Below are positions 1,307 through 13,843 of a stretch of DNA of 16,552 nucleotides, in pieces. Both the position numbers and the translations under genes were made by a program. The stretch is from a virus. Lineage: Duplodnaviria; Heunggongvirae; Uroviricota; Caudoviricetes. The first letter of the stretch is position 1. Every line of letters starts with the position of its first letter. Location: IMG/VR virus record IMGVR_UViG_2585427768_000007; one strand, 5' to 3'. A model generated the notes under the pieces. It worked only from the letters and a program-made list of their open reading frames with translations. It did not search any database and was not told where the DNA came from.

Positions 1307-1849
1307 TTAAAAATCAACCGGATTCGGGATCAGTTTTTGCCAGATTGCTGAAACGTATTTTGCCTGGTGACGGGCGTCATCCAGTGCATTGTGGCGAACG
1401 CCTTCGAATGGAATAACGGTTCTAGCATCAAAGTCGATTGTTTTTCCCAGCTCAACGATTGTGCGTACATCGCGATCGTTGTGGTAGCGCCACGGGCAGG
1501 GGATTCCCTGTCGTTCGTATGAACGGCGTAAAATTACGTTGTCGAAACTGGTTCCGTTGCCCCAGACCTGAACAAAAAACTCACCAGAGTTTTCGTCGAT
1601 AAATTCCCGTAATTGTAACAGTGCATCATCTAACGGGATTTCATCAGCCAGAATGGCAGACTGCGCTTCGCGCGATTGCTTAAGCCACCACTTAACGGTG
1701 TCCCGATCAATGACACCGCCAGCAGTATCCAGATCGATAGTCTTACTAAATTCCGGTCCCATATCTCCGGTTTGCGGATCGAAAAATATTGCACCTATTG
1801 AGATGATCGGGGCATCAGGATTTTTTCCCATGGTTTCAAGGTCGATCAT
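1307..1849 (-). CDS. DEDDh-type 3'-5' exonuclease (DnaQ/RNase T-like), phage early protein
   Basis: 180-aa ORF with Exo I motif MIDLETMG (D and E), Exo II region VWGNGTSFD and Exo III motif HNALDDARH. Confidence 0.75.
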   Translation of the reverse strand: MIDLETMGKNPDAPIISIGAIFFDPQTGDMGPEFSKTIDLDTAGGVIDRDTVKWWLKQSREAQSAILADEIPLDDALLQLREFIDENSGEFFVQVWGNGTSFDNVILRRSYERQGIPCPWRYHNDRDVRTIVELGKTIDFDARTVIPFEGVRHNALDDARHQAKYVSAIWQKLIPNPVDF

Positions 1850-1856
1850 CAGATGG

Positions 1857-2063
1857 TCACACGTCCTGCTGGTGGATATGATTATGATGACTGTTCACCG
1901 CAATTAAGGGATTTGCCATCTCGCCAGTTTCATCACCGCTATCGCCATGCTGAGCGCCACCAGCGCTCTCCTTACGAGAATGCGCAGCGCCTTCCATTTC
2001 CTCCGAATCTTTTTCAACCAGATACTCTTCATCGAATGTTTCCTGATATGTTGCGTCACCCAT
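1857..2063 (-). CDS. Small acidic hypothetical protein
   Basis: ATG at 2063 overlaps the TGA stop (2056-2058) of the upstream segment (ATGGGTGA), suggesting translational coupling. The longer 72-aa form starting at 2075 is possible. No recognised domain. Confidence 0.4.
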
Positions 2064-2334
2064 AACAGCCCACAATCAGGACAATTGCCGCCGCCAGCCC
2101 GACCGCAAGCAGTGCAGCTTTTTCCACTTCCTGTTGCGCCACTGGCTCTGACTGTTGCACTTCTGGCCCGTTTTGTAACGCATCCGGGCTGTTTTGTTCC
2201 GCTTTCTGGTAGTTCCGTTCCAATTCATGCTGATTCTGGTACACAGAATCGCGAGTCTGGATCCCCTCAACCCACTTCGGATCATTCGGGTCGCTAATTC
2301 CTTCAACAAATTCACCACGTGAGACAGCAAGCAC
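2056..2334 (-). CDS. C-terminal segment of phage early protein, with a hydrophobic helix ([17 protein letters not shown])
   Basis: Typical codon usage only in this frame. It opens at a GTG directly after an in-frame TAA with no Shine-Dalgarno, so it is more likely the tail of the upstream frameshifted gene than an independent gene. Confidence 0.4.
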
Positions 2335-2401
2335 TTATCGGCGTCAGGCTGGCTGATATTGGCTGCCTGCATAATTTTGTTTACTTCGTCAGCGGTAACT
2401 T

Positions 2402-3193
2402 TTACCGGCCCTGGTTGTGCGATCGTGTCAGATGCACCAGTATTTTGTTGTGAACCTGAGTACGTACCGTTTTTACGGGCGAAATATTCCTCTTTCGTGA
2501 TTTCAGTAGCCCCAGCGCCAGTGCCTTATCCAGACCAGAAAGTTTGTTTGCGCGACCGTATTTTTCGCCGTCCTTATCGGTGAAAAGGAAGTAGAACGGT
2601 CCCTCACGCTCTACAGATGGTTCGTCTTCCACTTCGCATTCGGTTTTTTCGTTGTCCGGCATTGCCGTTTCCACTGCATCAGTTTCTGGTACTGGTGACG
2701 GGAGAGTACCAGCTGTGCCCTGATTTGTTCCTTCGTCATCTTCAAACACGCCCTTGGTAGTCAGGTATTCAGTGATGTATTTGTTCAGTGCTACGGGATC
2801 TTTGTGAATGTCGATCGGACGCTCACGGACAAGGCCAAAAATAGTCTGACGGTCGTAGCGAACGGCATCAGGCTGTTTGCGCATTGATGCCGAAATACGC
2901 TTCCAGTCTTCGCGATCGTTGTCGATAACTTCATTTTTTGCCCAGCGATGGATGCTGCCGTCAATGTTTCCGGTATCAATATCGCCAGGCCAGAGAGCGT
3001 AGGCCAGTTCTTCATCCAGCGTTTTCCATGTCTGCTTGTATTCGCGACAAATGGCGGCAGTGACTGGGTTGATTTTTCCTGCTGAGTTTTCAGTGTTCTG
3101 TTGATTGACTCTGGCGCTGGCGAGATCAACAACAGACGTGTATTTTCCAGTCTCCTTGCGCTCACCGTCCCGACGTTTTTTCCAGATACGCAT
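2402..3193 (-). CDS. Middle segment of phage early protein (acidic), in -1 frame relative to the 3765 start
   Basis: 263-aa ORF. Protein-like composition and common codons from 3193 to about 2510; the last ~35 codons use rare codons (cta, cga, agg, ata, cgg) and look like out-of-frame read-through. ATG at 3193 is preceded directly by TGA. Confidence 0.45.
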   Translation of the reverse strand: MRIWKKRRDGERKETGKYTSVVDLASARVNQQNTENSAGKINPVTAAICREYKQTWKTLDEELAYALWPGDIDTGNIDGSIHRWAKNEVIDNDREDWKRISASMRKQPDAVRYDRQTIFGLVRERPIDIHKDPVALNKYITEYLTTKGVFEDDEGTNQGTAGTLPSPVPETDAVETAMPDNEKTECEVEDEPSVEREGPFYFLFTDKDGEKYGRANKLSGLDKALALGLLKSRKRNISPVKTVRTQVHNKILVHLTRSHNQGR

Positions 3194-3765
3194 TCAGCCT
3201 GAATTTCGGGCCATTTGGCACCAGGATTACATTTATGCTTAACCCACCCGATAGCAAACAGCTTAAGCTCCGGATACATAGCGTTAACATCAGGCATTTT
3301 CATCAACGCTTCAACGATATGCCCGTCAAAGGTAGCAACGTCTTCCTGCAACAATTCCTGCGCGCCAATAACCATATCAACGGTGATGTTTTCACATGTA
3401 CCGAACTTAACCAGGACAGCGTTCTGTACTTCAAGGGACAGCTTGTCAAAATTGACGTTCATCGGATCGGATTCAGTCTCAACCGGGACAAAGGAAGCAG
3501 ACTCCTCATCCCAGCGGTTTTCCTGCATATATTCAGCATCCCAGGAATCGAGGGCAGGGCGGGGTATACCGGGTTTATCCTCGCAGACAAGAAATTTATA
3601 AGCGCAGTCCTGAGCAGCCGGATAATGTTCCAGGAATTGCCAGTGAAATTTTGCGCGGGCGCGACGTTCATCACCGGCTTCAATGGCAGTGGCTACAGCG
3701 ACGGCACCTTCTTCCTTTATTGCCTGTTCGTCCGGAATAGCGGCGCAAATAAAGACTTTACTCAT
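2791..3765 (-). CDS. N-terminal segment of phage early protein (first ~197 codons genuine, remainder out of frame)
   Basis: Shine-Dalgarno GAGGT upstream of ATG 3765. Composition is protein-like up to the A6 run at 3176-3181; after that the frame yields S/T/L/R-rich low-quality sequence while the -1 frame becomes protein-like. Confidence 0.5.
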   Translation of the reverse strand: MSKVFICAAIPDEQAIKEEGAVAVATAIEAGDERRARAKFHWQFLEHYPAAQDCAYKFLVCEDKPGIPRPALDSWDAEYMQENRWDEESASFVPVETESDPMNVNFDKLSLEVQNAVLVKFGTCENITVDMVIGAQELLQEDVATFDGHIVEALMKMPDVNAMYPELKLFAIGWVKHKCNPGAKWPEIQAECVSGKNVGTVSARRLENTRLLLISPAPESINRTLKTQQEKSTQSLPPFVANTSRHGKRWMKNWPTLSGLAILIPETLTAASIAGQKMKLSTTIAKTGSVFRHQCANSLMPFATTVRLFLALSVSVRSTFTKIP

Positions 3766-4032
3766 TTTGTTTTACCTCATTACAGATTTAAGGGTGAACA
3801 AATCCCTGCCATTGCTGGCATATAAGAATGAAACCGGATAATATGACGGACGGGTTAGCCAGCCGGGATTTCGTTATTAGCCTCGCGATACTTTATCGAA
3901 CGGGAAACAGTCACCGGGAATTTTCTGTTCGTCCCTACAGAACACACGATGACTTACTGTCAAAAATGACGGCAATAACAACTGGCTCACCCGAAACAAG
4001 AAAAACGGTCAGAACAAGTGCAAATGCTGAAG

Positions 4033-4221
4033 TCACTGCTGTTCTCCGATAATACCAAGTTCAAGAAGGGCAATTCTGGAAAGTATGGAATTATCATTGA
4101 GAAGATAAGGTTCATATTTTCTCATCTTAATGGCATCTTCAGTAAACTCCCGGTTACTGAGCAGAACACCAATATCAAAACAACCTTCAGACGTATTAAC
4201 GTTTGGTAATAACGTTTCCAT
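4033..4221 (-). CDS. dicB: Cell-division inhibitor DicB homolog
   Basis: 62-aa ORF beginning METLLPNVNTSEGCF...FTEDAI, matching my recollection of Qin DicB in length and N-terminal half. GAGGA 7 nt upstream of ATG. Lies directly downstream of DicF as in Qin. Confidence 0.8.
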   Translation of the reverse strand: METLLPNVNTSEGCFDIGVLLSNREFTEDAIKMRKYEPYLLNDNSILSRIALLELGIIGEQQ

Positions 4222-4392
4222 TATCGCGTCCTCAACAATGAATTTTGTGATGCGGTGCCTGGTGCCTCCAGGTGACGTTAACCAGTTAACAATTAACGCC
4301 GGATACAGAGAATCCACCCATAACACTGTTTTTGGTTTTAACTGTTCCGCGTGCGCTCAGCCGCATTCACCACATCACAAAATTCACTTTAA

Positions 4393-4448
4393 AAAGGGCG
4401 GCAGAGCAGTCACGGAGTAAAACTGATACCGCCAAACGTCACCAGAAA
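4393..4448 (-). ncRNA. dicF: DicF small regulatory RNA (ftsZ-targeting sRNA)
   Basis: Minus strand reads TTTCTGGTGACGTTTGGCGGTATCAGTTTTACTCCGTGACTGCTCTGCCGCCCTTTTT, which matches the E. coli DicF sequence as I remember it, including the terminal GC stem and U-tract. Confidence 0.8.
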
Positions 4449-4753
4449 ATTGATAACAGAGGGCGTTGCAGCGGGGTTGTCACTTAAGCGTATGGTCAAC
4501 CTGACAACCCGGTGTCCTCAACGGGGGAAGAAATACCCCCGCCATACTTACCGCCGCGCCATTTCGCGGATTGCCACAACCGGAAGCGCACGATCGAATT
4601 AAATTTAACGACGACCTATACAGAGAGACTAACTTCTCCGGGCGCTTTCGTGTTATGCCCTGACTTTTCAGGGATATATCCTTTTCAGTAAACTGTCAGT
4701 GCCGGATTCTTATCCGTGTCCGGCGCACGCACTCTACCTCACCTGTGAATAAA

Positions 4754-5128
4754 TTAATGATTAATCGATATTTTGTTGTTTGATTCAACTTTCCCATCGG
4801 ATGTGTGATGCTTTAAATCACAGGAATTAATACTGCTTGCTGTAAAATGATTTTCAAGGGGAGCTATTCGAATCCCTTTCTTTTTCATTAACAAGCCAAA
4901 TCCTTTATTAATGATGTCCATTAATTCCAGAAAGTATTTTTCATGTAAATCCTGGTTATCAGAGAGCTGCTTCTCTTCGTACAGCCCGATAAAGGCTCGG
5001 CGTACGTTACCGGATATATTGTCGATGGTTTCTTTTTCTACGGTACTCAGGTCAAGAGTCGCCAGTTGGGAACGAACTATATTCGCTGCCATTTCCTGGA
5101 ATTGCATTGGTAAATCTTTAAATTCCAT
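4754..5128 (-). CDS. Hypothetical protein (AT-rich insert between the ydfC-like gene and dicF)
   Basis: 124-aa ORF with GAGG 8 nt upstream of the ATG. Visibly more AT-rich than flanking phage genes. No recognised motif. Confidence 0.55.
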   Translation of the reverse strand: MEFKDLPMQFQEMAANIVRSQLATLDLSTVEKETIDNISGNVRRAFIGLYEEKQLSDNQDLHEKYFLELMDIINKGFGLLMKKKGIRIAPLENHFTASSINSCDLKHHTSDGKVESNNKISINH

Positions 5129-5150
5129 TATTAGCCTCGTTGGTTAGCTA

Positions 5151-5369
5151 TTAACGCGGGTATGTAATCATTCTGGCAATGCTTAATGCCGCTGCTTTTT
5201 CCAGATTAGTGATATCCTGCTCCAGAGCGGACAGATTTTCAGCCTGCTTAGCCCTGGCTTCATTGGCCCATTTCAGATCCTGCGCTGCATTAATTTTCTG
5301 GTGCATCCACTCATAAAGTTCATCATCGGTATAGTCTGGCGCGATGATGACGGGTTCTCGTTTCTGCAT
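5151..5369 (-). CDS. ydfC: YdfC-like small prophage protein
   Basis: 72-aa ORF with GAGGA Shine-Dalgarno. Same size and position as ydfC in the Qin ydfA-ydfB-ydfC-dicF-dicB operon. Confidence 0.6.
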   Translation of the reverse strand: MQKREPVIIAPDYTDDELYEWMHQKINAAQDLKWANEARAKQAENLSALEQDITNLEKAAALSIARMITYPR

Positions 5370-5398
5370 ACTGATTCCTCGCGGTGCTGTTTCGCTTA

Positions 5399-5527
5399 TC
5401 AGCCGTTAGATTTTGCCGAGCTGGAAAGCGCCTGTTTAAACTCACTGAAGCTGAGAGCTTCTTCGCCTTCGGCAAGGCCTTCGAAGTATTCTTCGTAAGC
5501 CTTTTCCATGATTGTGTCGAAATCCAT
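5399..5527 (-). CDS. ydfB: YdfB-like small acidic protein (42 aa)
   Basis: Not in the supplied ORF track (below its size cut-off). Hand translation gives MDFDTIMEKAYEEYFEGLAEGEEALSFSEFKQALSSSAKSNG. AGGTGA Shine-Dalgarno upstream; packed between the ydfA-like and ydfC-like genes. Confidence 0.5.
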   Translation of the reverse strand: MDFDTIMEKAYEEYFEGLAEGEEALSFSEFKQALSSSAKSNG

Positions 5528-5528
5528 A

Positions 5529-5684
5529 TCACTCACCTGAGTTTCTTTCCAGCCAGCGACGGGCACCATTTTCGGTTTTAAACGTTTTGCTTTTGGTATA
5601 CGTCATCGCGGTGAATGTGCCGTCCTGGTTGGGAAACACGCCGTACACCAGAGATTCATTGTTGCCAAGATCGATAGTATCCAT
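5529..5684 (-). CDS. ydfA: YdfA-like small prophage protein (51 aa)
   Basis: MDTIDLGNNESLVYGVFPNQDGTFTAMTYTKSKTFKTENGARRWLERNSGE. GAGG 7 nt upstream of this internal ATG. The longer 80-aa form starting at 5771 is possible but its N-terminal extension is low-complexity. Confidence 0.55.
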   Translation of the reverse strand: MDTIDLGNNESLVYGVFPNQDGTFTAMTYTKSKTFKTENGARRWLERNSGE

Positions 5685-5890
5685 GCTGACCTCATTTCCC
5701 CTTAACGCCGGGGTAGCGGAACTAAAAAACTGCTGCGCTGTTATATAAAGTGTTCCCGCCGTCATGTTCATACGCCTCGGGCTGGCTACTTAACCCCTGA
5801 CCACTGCCGGGTAACTCGAAGTATTGCCTGGCGTTCTGTGGGGCGGGGGGGGTTGATGAATGAACAATACCACTACTATTTAATTATGTA

Positions 5891-5905
5891 AATAGCAGTG
5901 CTATT
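5891..5905. promoter_or_regulatory. Candidate repressor operator, perfect inverted repeat AATAGCA-G-TGCTATT, upstream of the dicB-like operon
   Basis: 15-bp palindrome between the terminator after the toxin gene and the ydfA-like gene. The same half-site recurs twice in the repressor/cro intergenic region. Confidence 0.5.
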
Positions 5906-5913
5906 ATCGTGGC

Positions 5914-5939
5914 AAGAAAAAAACCACCCGAAGGTGGTT
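5914..5939 (-). terminator. Rho-independent terminator downstream of the toxin gene
   Basis: On the minus strand, stem AACCACC, loop TTCG, stem GGTGGTT, followed by TTTTTTTCTT. Confidence 0.6.
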
Positions 5940-5953
5940 GTTGACAGGAAGGA

Positions 5954-6244
5954 TTAACAGGTTTTGTTTGGATACTGTCTTCGTGAGTGAACTACATTTA
6001 CGATCTCGATGTTAGATGCTGTTACTCGGTAAAGTATTATGTAGTTAGGATGAGTCACTATCTCACGAAGACTTGGAACTCTTTCGCTCGGTGGGTACAG
6101 ATAAGGGTGTTCAGTAAGTGACAAAACTGATGTTTCAATGCGTATTTTTAGTCTACGTGCAGCGGGAGGGTTTTCCTTAGCAATATAGGCTACGATCTGA
6201 CGTAAATCATCACGTGCAGAAGGTAGCCATAAAATGGGCAGCAT
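5954..6244 (-). CDS. Type II toxin, RelE/ParE superfamily (ParE-like)
   Basis: 96-aa ORF with ParE-like conserved layout (W near N-terminus, DL..I..YI, central proline-rich segment, ILYRV, H.RR near C-terminus). Start ATG overlaps the antitoxin stop by 1 nt. Confidence 0.8.
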   Translation of the reverse strand: MLPILWLPSARDDLRQIVAYIAKENPPAARRLKIRIETSVLSLTEHPYLYPPSERVPSLREIVTHPNYIILYRVTASNIEIVNVVHSRRQYPNKTC

Positions 6245-6435
6245 TACTCACTCCTGTTCGTTGCAGCTAATTGAGCAATAAGGTTTTCCATTTCAGCCAT
6301 TACTTCGTCATGTGGAATTGCAGGACGGGGATCTGAGAGGCTTGCTGCCACTTTGGTTCGCAACCATTCGTTATAGCTGTTTTCTTGTTCGACTGTTTCA
6401 AATTCAGAAATTATCGGGGAAAGGGCTGTACTCAT
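6244..6435 (-). CDS. Cognate antitoxin (ParD-like, putative)
   Basis: 63-aa acidic ORF immediately upstream of and coupled to the toxin. Strong Shine-Dalgarno GAGGAGG. Antitoxin-first order is typical of ParDE/RelBE modules. Confidence 0.7.
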   Translation of the reverse strand: MSTALSPIISEFETVEQENSYNEWLRTKVAASLSDPRPAIPHDEVMAEMENLIAQLAATNRSE

Positions 6436-6452
6436 GTTTTTACCTCCTCAGA

Positions 6453-6953
6453 TTAGGCGCGACGACCCTTTTGCGCAGCTAGCCATCGCGCAACGATTTC
6501 TTCAATTGATTCTTTTTTCTCCTTCATTTCCTTAAGCATTTTCTCTTTATCTTCTTTGGGGAAAGCCCTGAACGTCTGGAGCAAATCCCGCTCCATGGGG
6601 TCTATATTAAACGGAAGTTCGTTTTCCGATTGTTCCATATCTGCAGATATAGTGACAACATTGTCCTCCCCAGATTCTTGGGGATACATCCTTACAATTT
6701 GTAACAACTCGGCCATATCTGGTCTGATTGACTCGGGAGGAACTTGCAGCAACCCTGCGAACTTGATAACAGCCTCAAGATTTAAAGGTGTCTGACCATT
6801 TAGATAATGGCTTACAGCTCCCTGTGTCGAAAATCCCAGAATTTCTGCCGCACGCTCTTGGGTTAACCCTAGTTGATTTTTTTTCGCCGTCCAGATTTCT
6901 TTCAGTCTCTGGGCGGCTTGCAGGTCGATCTCTGACAGGGATTTTCTTTTCAT
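6453..6953 (-). CDS. Prophage repressor, XRE-family HTH (CI/DicA functional analog), no S24 peptidase domain evident
   Basis: 166-aa ORF; HTH segment LTQERAAEILGFSTQGAVSHYLNG; charged coiled-coil-like C-terminus; divergent from the Cro-like gene across an operator-rich intergenic region. Confidence 0.8.
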   Translation of the reverse strand: MKRKSLSEIDLQAAQRLKEIWTAKKNQLGLTQERAAEILGFSTQGAVSHYLNGQTPLNLEAVIKFAGLLQVPPESIRPDMAELLQIVRMYPQESGEDNVVTISADMEQSENELPFNIDPMERDLLQTFRAFPKEDKEKMLKEMKEKKESIEEIVARWLAAQKGRRA

Positions 6954-7060
6954 ACCTTCAATTCTAATAAGATTATTAATCTCTTTGAAATAGTGATGCT
7001 ATTTACTTTTAAAAATAACAATGCTATTAGTGATCGTGATGACATCACATGAGGTGAACA
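6954..7060. promoter_or_regulatory. Divergent promoter/operator region between repressor and Cro-like gene
   Basis: Two 15-bp sites with TGCTATT half-sites (6988-7002 AATAGTGATGCTATT; 7013-7027 AATAACAATGCTATT) and a distinct 13-bp palindrome GTGATGACATCAC at 7035-7047, just upstream of the Cro-like RBS GAGGTG. Confidence 0.6.
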
Positions 7061-7336
7061 ATGAATCTTGGAGAATATTTGCATCATTCCGGTATAACTC
7101 AGAAGCATTTTGCTGAAATTGTTGGGGTAACCCAAGGGATGGTAAGCCATGTCATTACCGGACGGGCGAAACTTACGGGGAAAAAAATTTTACGCTGGTG
7201 CGAAGCAACAGGCTGGATAGTAACTCCGCACGAGATTGATGGCAGTACTTATCCCAACCCAACCGACGGCTTACCTGTCGAGTATCAGGCTAACACACAA
7301 CCAGAGGCGGGGGTGATTCATGAAAATCAAGCATGA
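7061..7336 (+). CDS. Cro/YdaS-like HTH regulator
   Basis: 91-aa ORF; HTH segment ITQKHFAEIVGVTQGMVSHVITG; divergent from the repressor; overlaps the next gene by 17 nt. Confidence 0.75.
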   Translation: MNLGEYLHHSGITQKHFAEIVGVTQGMVSHVITGRAKLTGKKILRWCEATGWIVTPHEIDGSTYPNPTDGLPVEYQANTQPEAGVIHENQA

Positions 7337-10502: not shown

Positions 10503-11696
<1,194 letters not shown>

Positions 11697-12540: not shown

Positions 12541-12610
12541 TTTTATGGATCACCTTTCTGATTGATTTCATATTGGCGAGGTGACGTGAGTTAAGTAGAA
12601 TTGCTGCGGG

Positions 12611-12635
12611 TGCCTGAGGCTGTCTGCCTCAGGCA
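12611..12635. promoter_or_regulatory. Perfect 10-bp inverted repeat (TGCCTGAGGC-TGTCT-GCCTCAGGCA) between the queH-like and methyltransferase genes
   Basis: GC-rich hairpin with no U-tract; each arm contains a CCTNAGG heptamer. Candidate attenuator, operator or RNA-stability element. Confidence 0.4.
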
Positions 12636-12718
12636 TGAACACCAAAAGGCAGATAGAGAAAGCCCCAGTTAACATTACGCGTCCTGTAAGACGCTCAACA
12701 TTAATCTGAGGCATATGG

Positions 12719-13843
12719 ATGCGGATGAAAGAATTAAATAAATTCAGAGTGATAGACCTCTTTTGTGGGGCAGGTGGATTATCTTATGGTTTTCTTCATG
12801 GAGAGATGTCTGACTACTTTGAAAGTATCCTTGCTATTGATAATAATGCTGCAGCTATAAATACCTACAATGCCAATTTTGGTTTGCATGGAGTTCAGGC
12901 AAATATTGAGGAGTGGGCATCCAGCAATACTGTTCCTGAGGCTGATGTGGTCATAGGTGGCCCCCCGTGTCAGGGATTCAGTTTATTAAATAAGAATCGT
13001 TATGGTGATCACCGAAGAGCATTGTGGGAGCCTTATATGGATGTCATTGAGCGTTCAAGGGCTTGTATGTTCGTCATGGAAAATGTCCCCGGATTGCTGA
13101 TAAGCGATGAGTTTGCGGACATTACGTTTAGAGCGAAATCCATGGGCTTTATTCTGCTTAATCCAATGGTGTTGAATACTGCTGACTATGGAGTACCTCA
13201 GACAAGAAAACGAACGATAGCAATCGGTATCAAACGAGAACTCTTCGATGTGCATAGTATTCCGGCGTTCCCGCCAGCACCAACGCATCGTTCCCCTGAT
13301 AAGGATGTCGCTTTGCCTGAATGGGTCTGTACGCGTGATGCAATTGGTGACTTACCTGCTCCTGTTGGAACTGATATTCGTAATGAACTTCCTCCGCTGA
13401 ACTTACATTTTGGGCGTAATCCCACACCTGTTTCTCTGGAGCGATATAAAGCGGTTCCACCAGGAGGTAACCGTTTCGATTTACAGAAAAAAAGACCTGA
13501 TATAACCCCGGCGTGCTGGCTAAAAAAGAAATCTGGAGGGACCGATTTGTTTGGACGTCTGTGGTGGGACAGACCTTCAGTAACGATTCGTACTGAGTTT
13601 TTCAAACCGGAGAAAGGGCGATATTTACATCCGGAAGAGGATCGGCCAATAACTCATCGTGAGGCAGCGAGATTAATGTCTTTTCCTGATAATTTCATTT
13701 TTACCGGTTCAAAAACTGAGATTGCAAAGCAGATCGGGAATGCTGTTCCACCGCTATTTGCGGCAAAAATCGCACAATATGTGTATGGAGTTTTGCAGGG
13801 ACGGTATAAGAATAACATCAGTAAGAATAGTCAAGCAGCCTGA
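12719..13843 (+). CDS. DNA (cytosine-5)-methyltransferase, Type II R-M modification subunit
   Basis: 374-aa ORF with canonical m5C motifs in order: I DLFCGAGG, IV GGPPCQGFS, VI ENV, VIII QTRKR, IX REAARLMSFPD, X GNAVPP. GAGG 8 nt upstream of the ATG. Confidence 0.9.
   Translation: MRMKELNKFRVIDLFCGAGGLSYGFLHGEMSDYFESILAIDNNAAAINTYNANFGLHGVQANIEEWASSNTVPEADVVIGGPPCQGFSLLNKNRYGDHRRALWEPYMDVIERSRACMFVMENVPGLLISDEFADITFRAKSMGFILLNPMVLNTADYGVPQTRKRTIAIGIKRELFDVHSIPAFPPAPTHRSPDKDVALPEWVCTRDAIGDLPAPVGTDIRNELPPLNLHFGRNPTPVSLERYKAVPPGGNRFDLQKKRPDITPACWLKKKSGGTDLFGRLWWDRPSVTIRTEFFKPEKGRYLHPEEDRPITHREAARLMSFPDNFIFTGSKTEIAKQIGNAVPPLFAAKIAQYVYGVLQGRYKNNISKNSQAA

Follow-up and report, generated by a model that had tools for sequence, protein, structure and literature searches.

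A dicBF operon of the Qin type with a diverged dicB allele, probably the early-left operon of a decaying lambdoid prophage

The window analysed here, a stretch of 16,552 nucleotides from a virus of the class Caudoviricetes (IMG/VR record IMGVR_UViG_2585427768_000007), carries on its minus strand the gene order ydfA-ydfB-ydfC-orf124-dicF-dicB (Table 1). This region is a dicBF operon, a well-described prophage module that is already known, here in the Qin-type order with orf124 as an extra ORF. The six ORFs running from ydfA through dicB are all intact, and the stretch has no indels relative to Escherichia coli JKHS016, which among complete E. coli genomes is the closest to the window (98.6% identity over 91% of its length). 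The first-pass annotation had placed a Qin-type dicB operon on the minus strand downstream of the repressor, and each element that it named was recovered in place, far above chance; its 51-, 42- and 72-aa genes encode YdfA, YdfB and YdfC, which match their Qin counterparts at 100%, 100% and 99% identity. It described the operon as complete, which is correct for ydfA through dicB but not for ydfD, the next gene of the Qin operon, which is broken into three frames. The span that it gave (4033–5771) extends at the upper end to an upstream in-frame ATG, which yields an 80-aa ORF, whereas RefSeq uses the 51-aa start of ydfA in the nearest relative. It did not list orf124, the broken ydfD or the PaaA2/ParE pair that separates the repressor gene from the operon.

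Table 1. Features of the dicBF operon and the adjoining immunity region (coordinates are those of the window)
Feature	Position	Strand	Description
ydfD-like (DUF1482) remnant	3855–4036	-	Split over three reading frames
dicB, non-K-12 allele	4033–4221	-	62 aa; Pfam PF05358, NCBIfam NF049927
dicF-dicB spacer (dicB 5' UTR)	4222–4395	-	174 nt; 173/174 identical to K-12
DicF sRNA	4396–4448	-	Rfam RF00039; 53/53 identical to annotated K-12 dicF
Precursor region upstream of dicF (predicted 5' processing substrate)	4449–4753	-	88.1% identical to K-12
orf124	4754–5128	-	124 aa; between ydfC and dicF; phrog_6937, function unknown
ydfC	5151–5369	-	72 aa; 71/72 (99%) identical to K-12
ydfB	5399–5527	-	42 aa; 42/42 identical to K-12
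ydfA	5529–5684	-	51 aa; DUF1391, Pfam PF07151; 51/51 identical to K-12
Operon 5' leader	5685–5863	-	Conserved with O157:H7 prophage; K-12 match only from 5723 onward
pL-like promoter and OL-like operator pair	5864–5905	-	TTTACA-17-TATTGT (5892–5864), upstream of ydfA
Intrinsic-terminator-like hairpin and T-run	5922–5939	-	AACCACCTTCGGGTGGTT then TTTTTCTT; predicted end of repressor-paaA2-parE transcript
ParE-type toxin	5954–6244	-	96 aa; Pfam ParE_toxin, 65.5 bits; PDB 5cw7_B (ParE2), E 5e-36
PaaA2-type antitoxin	6244–6435	-	63 aa; Pfam PF21217 (PaaA2), 77.1 bits; PDB 3zbe (PaaA2), E 2e-22
Immunity repressor	6453–6953	-	166 aa; N-terminal HTH lambda CI-like, C-terminal ~55 aa PaaR/DicA-like
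OR-like operator pair	6989–7028 (6989–7003, 7014–7028)	.	25 bp apart, between repressor gene and cro-like gene

Beyond ydfD, comparison with the 822-aa exonuclease of the nearest relative shows at least four frameshifts in the exonuclease gene. Sequencing error was considered as their source, but the deletions lie outside homopolymer runs and cluster only downstream of dicB, so that the frameshifts in ydfD and the exonuclease gene are probably real. With the prophage degraded in this way downstream, the module may itself be in the process of being lost. The intact state of the DicF/DicB part next to these decaying neighbours fits selection for its retention.

The sRNA gene matched Rfam family RF00039 at 4396–4447 with 76.7 bits (E = 9.4e-16, model positions 1–52 of 52), so that the covariance-model search proposed with the first-pass annotation gave a score above the gathering score of 48. 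The candidate had been called a near-exact DicF; it is DicF, and it is exact, because the 53 nt at 4396–4448 are those of K-12. Its stem-loop is followed by a T-run (TTTTT, 4391–4395), which together constitute an intrinsic terminator lying between the ydfC side of the operon and dicB. DicF pairs with ftsZ through its 3' half and with xylR through its 5' end. In the window, where the 3' half is identical to that of K-12, nucleotides 24–53 pair with positions -29 to 0 of ftsZ at -27.9 kcal/mol, as compared with -17.3 ± 3.2 kcal/mol for shuffled sequences, one of 300 of which reached the observed value; the ftsZ complementarity expected of a genuine DicF is thus borne out. Only this 3'-half comparison is informative, since the energy of the duplex formed by whole-length DicF with ftsZ does not discriminate (65 of 500 shuffles were as good). 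Of 5425 E. coli genomes, 5389 have an ftsZ leader of at least 99% identity, and the pairing of K-12 DicF with the ftsZ ribosome-binding site has been proven by compensatory mutations (PMC5069750). Release of DicF from the polycistronic transcript by RNase E and RNase III has also been described (PMC10448788, PMC5069750), and homology predicts the same processing here, the flanks that it requires being conserved, with the last ~70 nt 5' of dicF identical to those of K-12. On the other side of dicF, the spacer is the most conserved non-coding stretch besides dicF itself and is at least 95% identical in ~4,066 E. coli records. A search of Rfam at a permissive threshold over 3800–7200 added nothing except a sub-threshold match to STnc100 at 4189–4398 (38.7 bits; gathering score, 47). 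Overall, dicF and the spacer that follows it are far better conserved than dicB.

The dicB gene lies directly downstream of dicF, past the spacer. Its product matched Pfam PF05358 over positions 1–62 of 62 with 129.5 bits (cut-off 27) and NCBIfam NF049927 with 111 bits (cut-off 100), and it aligned without gaps to Qin DicB of K-12, from which identification of the 62-aa ORF as DicB follows, as the first-pass annotation had proposed. The two proteins are identical at 38 of 62 positions (61%), with a diverged C-terminal half; in nucleotide sequence, the gene's 3' half agrees with K-12 at only 51%, which makes it essentially unrelated. The window's dicB is nevertheless a common allele, and RefSeq names its product DicB: the protein is identical to WP_000449172.1 of JKHS016, and the same protein or gene at ≥99% identity is present in 315 E. 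coli records. It shares 59 of 62 residues with the allele of the O157 Z563 prophage (the codon differences being six synonymous and three non-synonymous) and 48% with DicB of the O157:H7 strain 611 locus. Across four alleles, 28 of the 62 positions are invariant, without gaps and spread over both halves, with the C-terminal pattern L40 L41 N42 I46 S48 A51 L53 L55 G59 Q62. A search for solved structures returned none for DicB or its relatives from which the MinC interface could be mapped. MinC binding, septum targeting via ZipA and inhibition of ManYZ are known solely for the K-12 allele (PMC6832061), the one with which division inhibition and phage exclusion were demonstrated, and by homology the window's protein would share these activities.

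Inserted between ydfC and dicF, orf124 is part of a 383-bp segment that stands in for 22 bp of K-12. It is found in 881 of 5426 E. coli genomes, and a homologue search returned only proteins of Escherichia or Salmonella, all annotated as 'hypothetical'. There were no matches in Pfam, NCBIfam or PADLOC, and the single-sequence AlphaFold model (pLDDT 56) was too poor for use. In the operon leader, a put/nut-like antitermination structure was sought and rejected, as the fold of its 174 nt (5685–5858) is no more stable than that of shuffled sequences (z = 0.49).

Upstream of the operon, the repressor matched lambda CI (PDB 7jvt) over residues 2–115 with E = 9e-10. HTH_3 was its sole Pfam domain, and peptidase S24, the autocleavage domain, was not found. 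The C-terminal part is 47% identical over 87 aa to the regulator encoded upstream of paaA/parE in O157:H7 strain 611 and matches the C-terminus of DicA weakly. The gene thus appears to be the first of a three-gene toxin-antitoxin operon of the PaaR-PaaA2-ParE type, with PaaR homology confined to the C-terminal part of its product. A -10 hexamer (TAGAAT, 6966–6961) ends 7 nt before its ATG, a spacing that suggests a leaderless repressor mRNA.

The 15-bp operator motif AATAGnAnnnnTATT occurs at four sites in the window, arranged as two pairs, at pL and at OR, with the sites of a pair 25 bp apart; 0.02 occurrences are expected by chance (a search of both strands reports five matches for the four sites, since one of them is palindromic). 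In the pL pair, the site at 5891–5905 is a perfect palindrome, AATAGCAcTGCTATT, the other lies at 5866–5880, and the two overlap the -35 and -10 of the promoter. JKHS016, which has the same repressor, has the same operator-promoter arrangement; neither K-12 Qin nor the O157 Z563 prophage shows this arrangement, and both carry other repressors and other operators. Judged from these consensus matches, on which all promoter and operator assignments are based, the operators co-vary with the repressor type across prophages. The operator pairs common to the operon promoter and OR also support repression of the operon by the prophage immunity repressor, and the view that the module is under repressor control, put forward in the first-pass annotation, may stand as an inference. 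Prophages of at least three different immunity types carry the dicBF operon as a cassette after their pL promoter, and the geometry of operators and promoter is the same in all of them.

In its gene order and strand, the window agrees with the DicA-repressed Qin operon of K-12 (ydfA-ydfB-ydfC-dicF-dicB-ydfD), which likewise directly follows the immunity repressor gene and shares its direction of transcription; YdfA, YdfB and YdfC (99–100%), dicF (53/53), the spacer (173/174) and the length and family of DicB are shared. The differences are the 124-aa ORF in place of 22 bp, the 61% identical DicB, the frameshifted ydfD, a promoter, operators and leader (upstream of 5723) that are unrelated to dicBp, a repressor that is not DicA and has only weak C-terminal similarity to it, and the PaaA2-ParE genes interposed between repressor and operon. 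The immunity region of O157:H7 CP-933P/Sp12 (paaR2-paaA2-parE2, PRM/PR; PMC8630535) provides a parallel for this upstream part, with a regulator-PaaA2-ParE set opposite a Cro-like/YdaT-like pair, a -10 spacing suggestive of a leaderless repressor mRNA, then a pL-like promoter with OR-type operators and dicB further downstream. In CP-933P, PaaR2 represses the PL promoter downstream of paaR2-paaA2-parE2 (PMC8630535). Its operators, however, are 18-bp palindromes with the half-site GTTTAGTAA, unlike the paired AATAGnAnnnnTATT sites of the window, so immunity specificity differs; the DNA-binding domain of the window repressor is lambda CI-like, its match to the O157 regulator being confined to the C-terminal ~55 aa, while the ParE and PaaA2 of the window are homologous, but not identical, to the crystallized O157 proteins. 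In O157:H7 strain 611, regulator-paaA-parE is followed by ydfA-ydfB...dicB-DUF1482-exonuclease. The Z563 prophage of O157:H7 has the layout of the window, ydfA-ydfB-ydfC-orf124-dicF region-dicB-DUF1482 (annotated as frameshifted)-exonuclease-xis-int, with the leader downstream of the promoter conserved, but has a different repressor, different operators (TACCnATGGGTA pairs) and a dicF copy not identical to that of the window. The dicBF layout of the window is thus known from O157:H7 prophages and already in the literature. Lambda Kil and Rac KilR are likewise division inhibitors encoded in pL operons under the immunity repressor; they act on FtsZ by other routes and without an sRNA, and the likeness is one of function with no claim of sequence kinship.

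We consider the locus to be a close relative of the Qin dicBF operon that serves a decaying lambdoid prophage as its early-left operon, the equivalent of pL, and put the probability of this reading, mechanism included, at about 0.85. In the lysogen, a CI/PaaR-type repressor would be made together with the PaaA2-ParE pair and would keep the operon off by binding the operator pair over the -35 and -10, as well as the equivalent OR pair. Once repression lapses, a polycistronic transcript would be produced, from which termination at the DicF hairpin and 5' processing would free the 53-nt DicF; together with Hfq, DicF would use its 3' half to base-pair with the ribosome-binding site of ftsZ and would so block FtsZ synthesis. 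Read-through transcripts would yield DicB, which would bind MinC and bring it via ZipA to midcell, where FtsZ rings would be dismantled. This sequence of events follows the published DicF/DicB mechanism (PMC5069750, PMC6832061, PMC10448788); in K-12, DicB also blocks ManYZ-dependent entry of phage DNA. Counting against the proposal are the position of the DicF terminator in front of dicB, with no N-like antiterminator found, the lack of an S24 autocleavage domain in the repressor, the degraded genes downstream and a DicB that is just 61% identical to the sole allele tested experimentally.

That divergence bears on several other readings. The operon might have lost its function and merely be carried along by a cryptic prophage in decay, its DicB no longer able to inhibit division, as the three-frame ydfD, the frameshifted exonuclease gene and the dissimilarity of the DicB C-terminal half to K-12 could indicate; yet the ORFs from ydfA to dicB are intact and free of indels relative to JKHS016, neither DicF with its flanks nor the promoter with its operators shows any damage, the former being invariant, the same DicB recurs in 315 records, synonymous changes outnumber non-synonymous ones relative to the O157 allele and conserved residues form a pattern along the full length of the protein, all of which makes a silent relic very unlikely. 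A DicB with altered partner or exclusion specificity, acting on something other than MinC, ZipA or ManYZ, could account for the coexistence in E. coli of alleles with 61% and 48% identity, although MinC is a conserved host protein, and for a 3' half of the gene essentially unrelated to K-12 in DNA. The equal length, gap-free alignment, invariant positions over both halves and a score above the curated NCBIfam threshold for DicB speak against it, and we regard such a switch as quite improbable. Slightly less so, but still improbable, is that this DicB allele, with its diverged C-terminal half, or orf124, which would be co-transcribed within the DicF precursor, has some function not yet described, such as another phage-exclusion spectrum or host target, or, relatedly, that the near-invariant 174-nt spacer with its sub-threshold STnc100 match is a functional RNA element itself.

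A different question is whom the module serves. It could act mainly in the phage's own lytic programme, as a transient division block after induction like that by lambda Kil, with host-beneficial exclusion or division control secondary. Its pL position directly under immunity operators agrees with this, as do sequenced phages, among them Stx-converting phages and phage Tritos, whose genomes contain the same operon with dicB and DicF annotated, and the remark that lambdoid immunity regions have kil, dicB or both after cI or paaR2 (PMC8630535). Parts of the operon are, however, found in ~4,750 of 5,426 complete E. coli genomes, and it is kept in thousands of them, often within defective prophages; given the broken recombination genes further downstream in the window, a full lytic programme seems unlikely here. 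A mainly lytic role, which does not exclude our preferred reading, is possible but in our view doubtful.

Under the preferred reading, that of a Qin-like early-left dicBF operon, the importance of the locus beyond its correct annotation is small. Given the standard dicBF module that the window carries, inactivation of the prophage repressor should lead to filamentation of the host strain and to a change in its susceptibility to phages.

The first-pass annotation had read the minus strand at 4033–5771 as a complete Qin-type dicB operon, after the cryptic Qin prophage of Escherichia coli K-12. The matches of DicF, DicB and ydfA, ydfB and ydfC to their references go far beyond chance, so that the dicBF operon in the window is real and was correctly interpreted. 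The three small genes of 51, 42 and 72 codons upstream of dicF were confirmed as ydfA, ydfB and ydfC by comparison with the K-12 alleles. The upstream limit (5771) corresponds to an in-frame ATG that yields an 80-aa ORF, and the RefSeq annotation of the closest relative starts ydfA at the 51-aa start. As to completeness, the operon is intact from ydfA through dicB but the ydfD homologue is broken.

Features of the dicBF region (window positions, except for the Z563 prophage)
Feature	Position	Strand	Remarks
Repressor gene	6453–6953	−	166-aa HTH protein
PaaA2-type antitoxin	6244–6435	−	domain search; PDB 3zbe
ParE toxin	5954–6244	−	domain search; PDB 5cw7
Terminator-like hairpin	5939–5922	−	after parE
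Promoter-like site TTTACA-17-TATTGT	5892–5864	−	directly after hairpin
ydfA	5529–5684	−	51 aa, 51/51 identical to K-12
ydfB	5399–5527	−	42 aa, 42/42 identical to K-12
ydfC	5151–5369	−	72 aa, 71/72 identical to K-12
orf124	4754–5128	−	124-aa ORF encoded in 383-bp replacement; overlooked in the first-pass annotation
dicF	4396–4447	−	Rfam match
dicF–dicB spacer	4222–4395	−	174 nt
dicB	4033–4221	−	62 aa
ydfD-like gene and exonuclease gene	1307–4036	−	frameshifted
TACCnATGGGTA operator pairs	L003 3491–3527 and 2958–2995		Z563 prophage (sequence L003), different immunity type

DicF, claimed to be near-exact, covers the whole Rfam model (76.7 bits, E 9.4e-16; gathering score 48 bits), and 4396–4448 (−) reproduces the annotated dicF of K-12 MG1655 at all 53 nt; ∼ 70 nt of its upstream flank likewise match K-12 without a difference. 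With DicF and its flanks identical or nearly so to K-12, the published mechanism can be carried over directly: compensatory mutants have proven that DicF base-pairs through its 3′ part with the ribosome-binding site of ftsZ, and its 5′ end targets xylR (PMC5069750). The expected pairing with ftsZ is borne out by a computed energy of −27.9 kcal/mol between DicF nucleotides 24–53 and ftsZ positions −29 to 0, against −17.3 ± 3.2 kcal/mol for shuffled controls, only 1 in 300 of which did as well. The ftsZ leader is at least 99% identical in 5389 of 5425 E. coli genomes.

The spacer between dicF and dicB matches K-12 at 173 of 174 nt, unlike the adjoining dicB (51–87% DNA identity), and is at least 95% identical in ∼ 4066 E. 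coli records. An Rfam STnc100 match over it (4189–4398) stays below threshold (38.7 bits versus a gathering score of 47). The spacer could be a functional RNA element, such as an RNase III site or the dicB 5′ UTR, or else a recombination patch.

The 62-aa ORF put forward as DicB aligns with the Pfam DicB model over its full length (129.5 bits) and scores above the cut-off of the curated NCBIfam model (111 versus 100 bits). Only 38 of its 62 residues are identical to K-12 DicB, with DNA identity of 87% in the 5′ half of the gene and 51% in the 3′ half. The same protein is annotated in RefSeq as DicB (WP_000449172.1), 315 E. coli records contain the gene at 99% identity or more, and an O157:H7 allele shares 59 of 62 residues, with six synonymous and three non-synonymous codon differences; by sequence, the window DicB is a diverged yet common allele. 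Four DicB alleles, down to 48% identity, align without gaps and have 28 invariant positions spread over both halves, which speaks for conservation of both fold and function. MinC-dependent activities have been demonstrated for the K-12 protein only (PMC6832061), and we found no solved DicB structure.

DNA comparison with Qin of K-12 gave two homologous blocks, 5723–5131 (97.8%) and 4747–3000 (88.1%), between which 383 bp of the window, encoding orf124, stand in place of 22 bp. The orf124 product falls in a PHROG family without an assigned function and has no match in Pfam, NCBIfam or PADLOC; its homologues are all 'hypothetical' proteins from Escherichia or Salmonella. Of 5426 complete E. coli genomes, 881 encode it; O157:H7 prophages with an identically arranged operon are among the carriers. 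Its N-terminal ∼ 55–63 aa, and only these, are common to three other PHROG families and to 133-aa homologues. A single-sequence structure model had low confidence (pLDDT 56).

The N-terminal domain of the repressor resembles the DNA-binding domain of lambda CI (PDB 7jvt, E 9e-10), and the C-terminal ∼ 55 aa match the O157:H7 regulator that precedes paaA/parE (47% over 87 aa) and, weakly, the DicA C-terminus; domain search found no S24 peptidase domain. The protein thus looks chimeric, with a lambda-CI-like HTH and a PaaR/DicA-like tail, and belongs to a predicted three-gene PaaR/PaaA2/ParE operon (5954–6953, −). The repressor −10 hexamer ends 7 nt 5′ of the ATG, a spacing that points to a leaderless mRNA like those of cI and paaR2.

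Two 15-bp AATAGnAnnnnTATT sites (5891–5905 and 5866–5880) overlap the −35 and −10 elements of the promoter-like site, one each. Elsewhere in the 16.5-kb window the motif occurs only as a second pair (6989–7003 and 7014–7028), likewise spaced by 25 bp and flanked by the repressor gene and the divergent cro-like gene (7061–7336), an OR-like position; 0.02 sites are expected by chance. Both pairs are kept in E. coli JKHS016, whose repressor is the same, and are absent from K-12 Qin and one O157:H7 prophage, both of which have other repressors. That O157:H7 prophage, from strain Z563, has its own TACCnATGGGTA pair, also with 25-bp spacing, at equivalent positions and related sites at its OR; at pL the pair overlaps a −35 element, TTTAC, in the same way and precedes the dicBF leader that the two prophages have in common. 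Different operator pairs thus go with different repressors, which makes dicBF a cassette placed behind pL-type promoters that differ in immunity. For the window operon, repressor control as first proposed is a well-supported prediction rather than a measurement.

This arrangement is the one described experimentally for CP-933P of O157:H7, where PaaR2 and YdaS repress a PL promoter located after paaR2-paaA2-parE2 and dicB lies farther downstream (PMC8630535). The immunity specificity of the window repressor differs from the published one. O157:H7 strain 611 has the same gene layout. In K-12, DicA is documented to repress dicBp, the antirepressor Rem to lift this repression, and switching to occur stochastically (PMC10448788).

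The closest sequence to the window is a prophage adjoining yccA in JKHS016, which covers 91% of the window at 98.6% identity. Relative to it, there are no indels between 7400 and 3981. The ydfD (DUF1482) homologue, 3′ of dicB, is broken into three reading frames and the large exonuclease gene has at least four frameshifts compared with the 822-aa JKHS016 protein; the deletions in this region fall outside homopolymer runs. The indel-free stretch indicates that ydfA–dicB has stayed intact while the remaining left arm decays. In the right arm, the 338-aa ORF at 10535–11551 (+) lies at the position of an IS5-family transposase in JKHS016 and is probably an IS5 insertion. At 12608–12788 (+), a match to the Rfam sok antitoxin (RF01794) barely exceeds threshold (61.0 versus 59 bits) and overlaps the start of a 374-aa ORF (12719–13843); in this region the nearest relative carries a gene pair for a DNA cytosine methyltransferase and NgoMIV-type restriction.

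Of 5426 complete E. coli genomes, 4759 contain parts of the 2.1-kb region (median, two places each), and 321 have at least 80% of it in one place. Deposited phage genomes carry the operon too, among them those of Stx-converting phages and of phage Tritos, with DicF and DicB annotated; published work has already reported dicBF from several prophage contexts and in multiple copies for O157:H7 (PMC5069750). The dicBF operon of the window is a known, textbook module, whose first-pass description is corrected by orf124, the diverged but common DicB allele, the broken ydfD and the predicted PaaR/PaaA2/ParE-type repressor operon.
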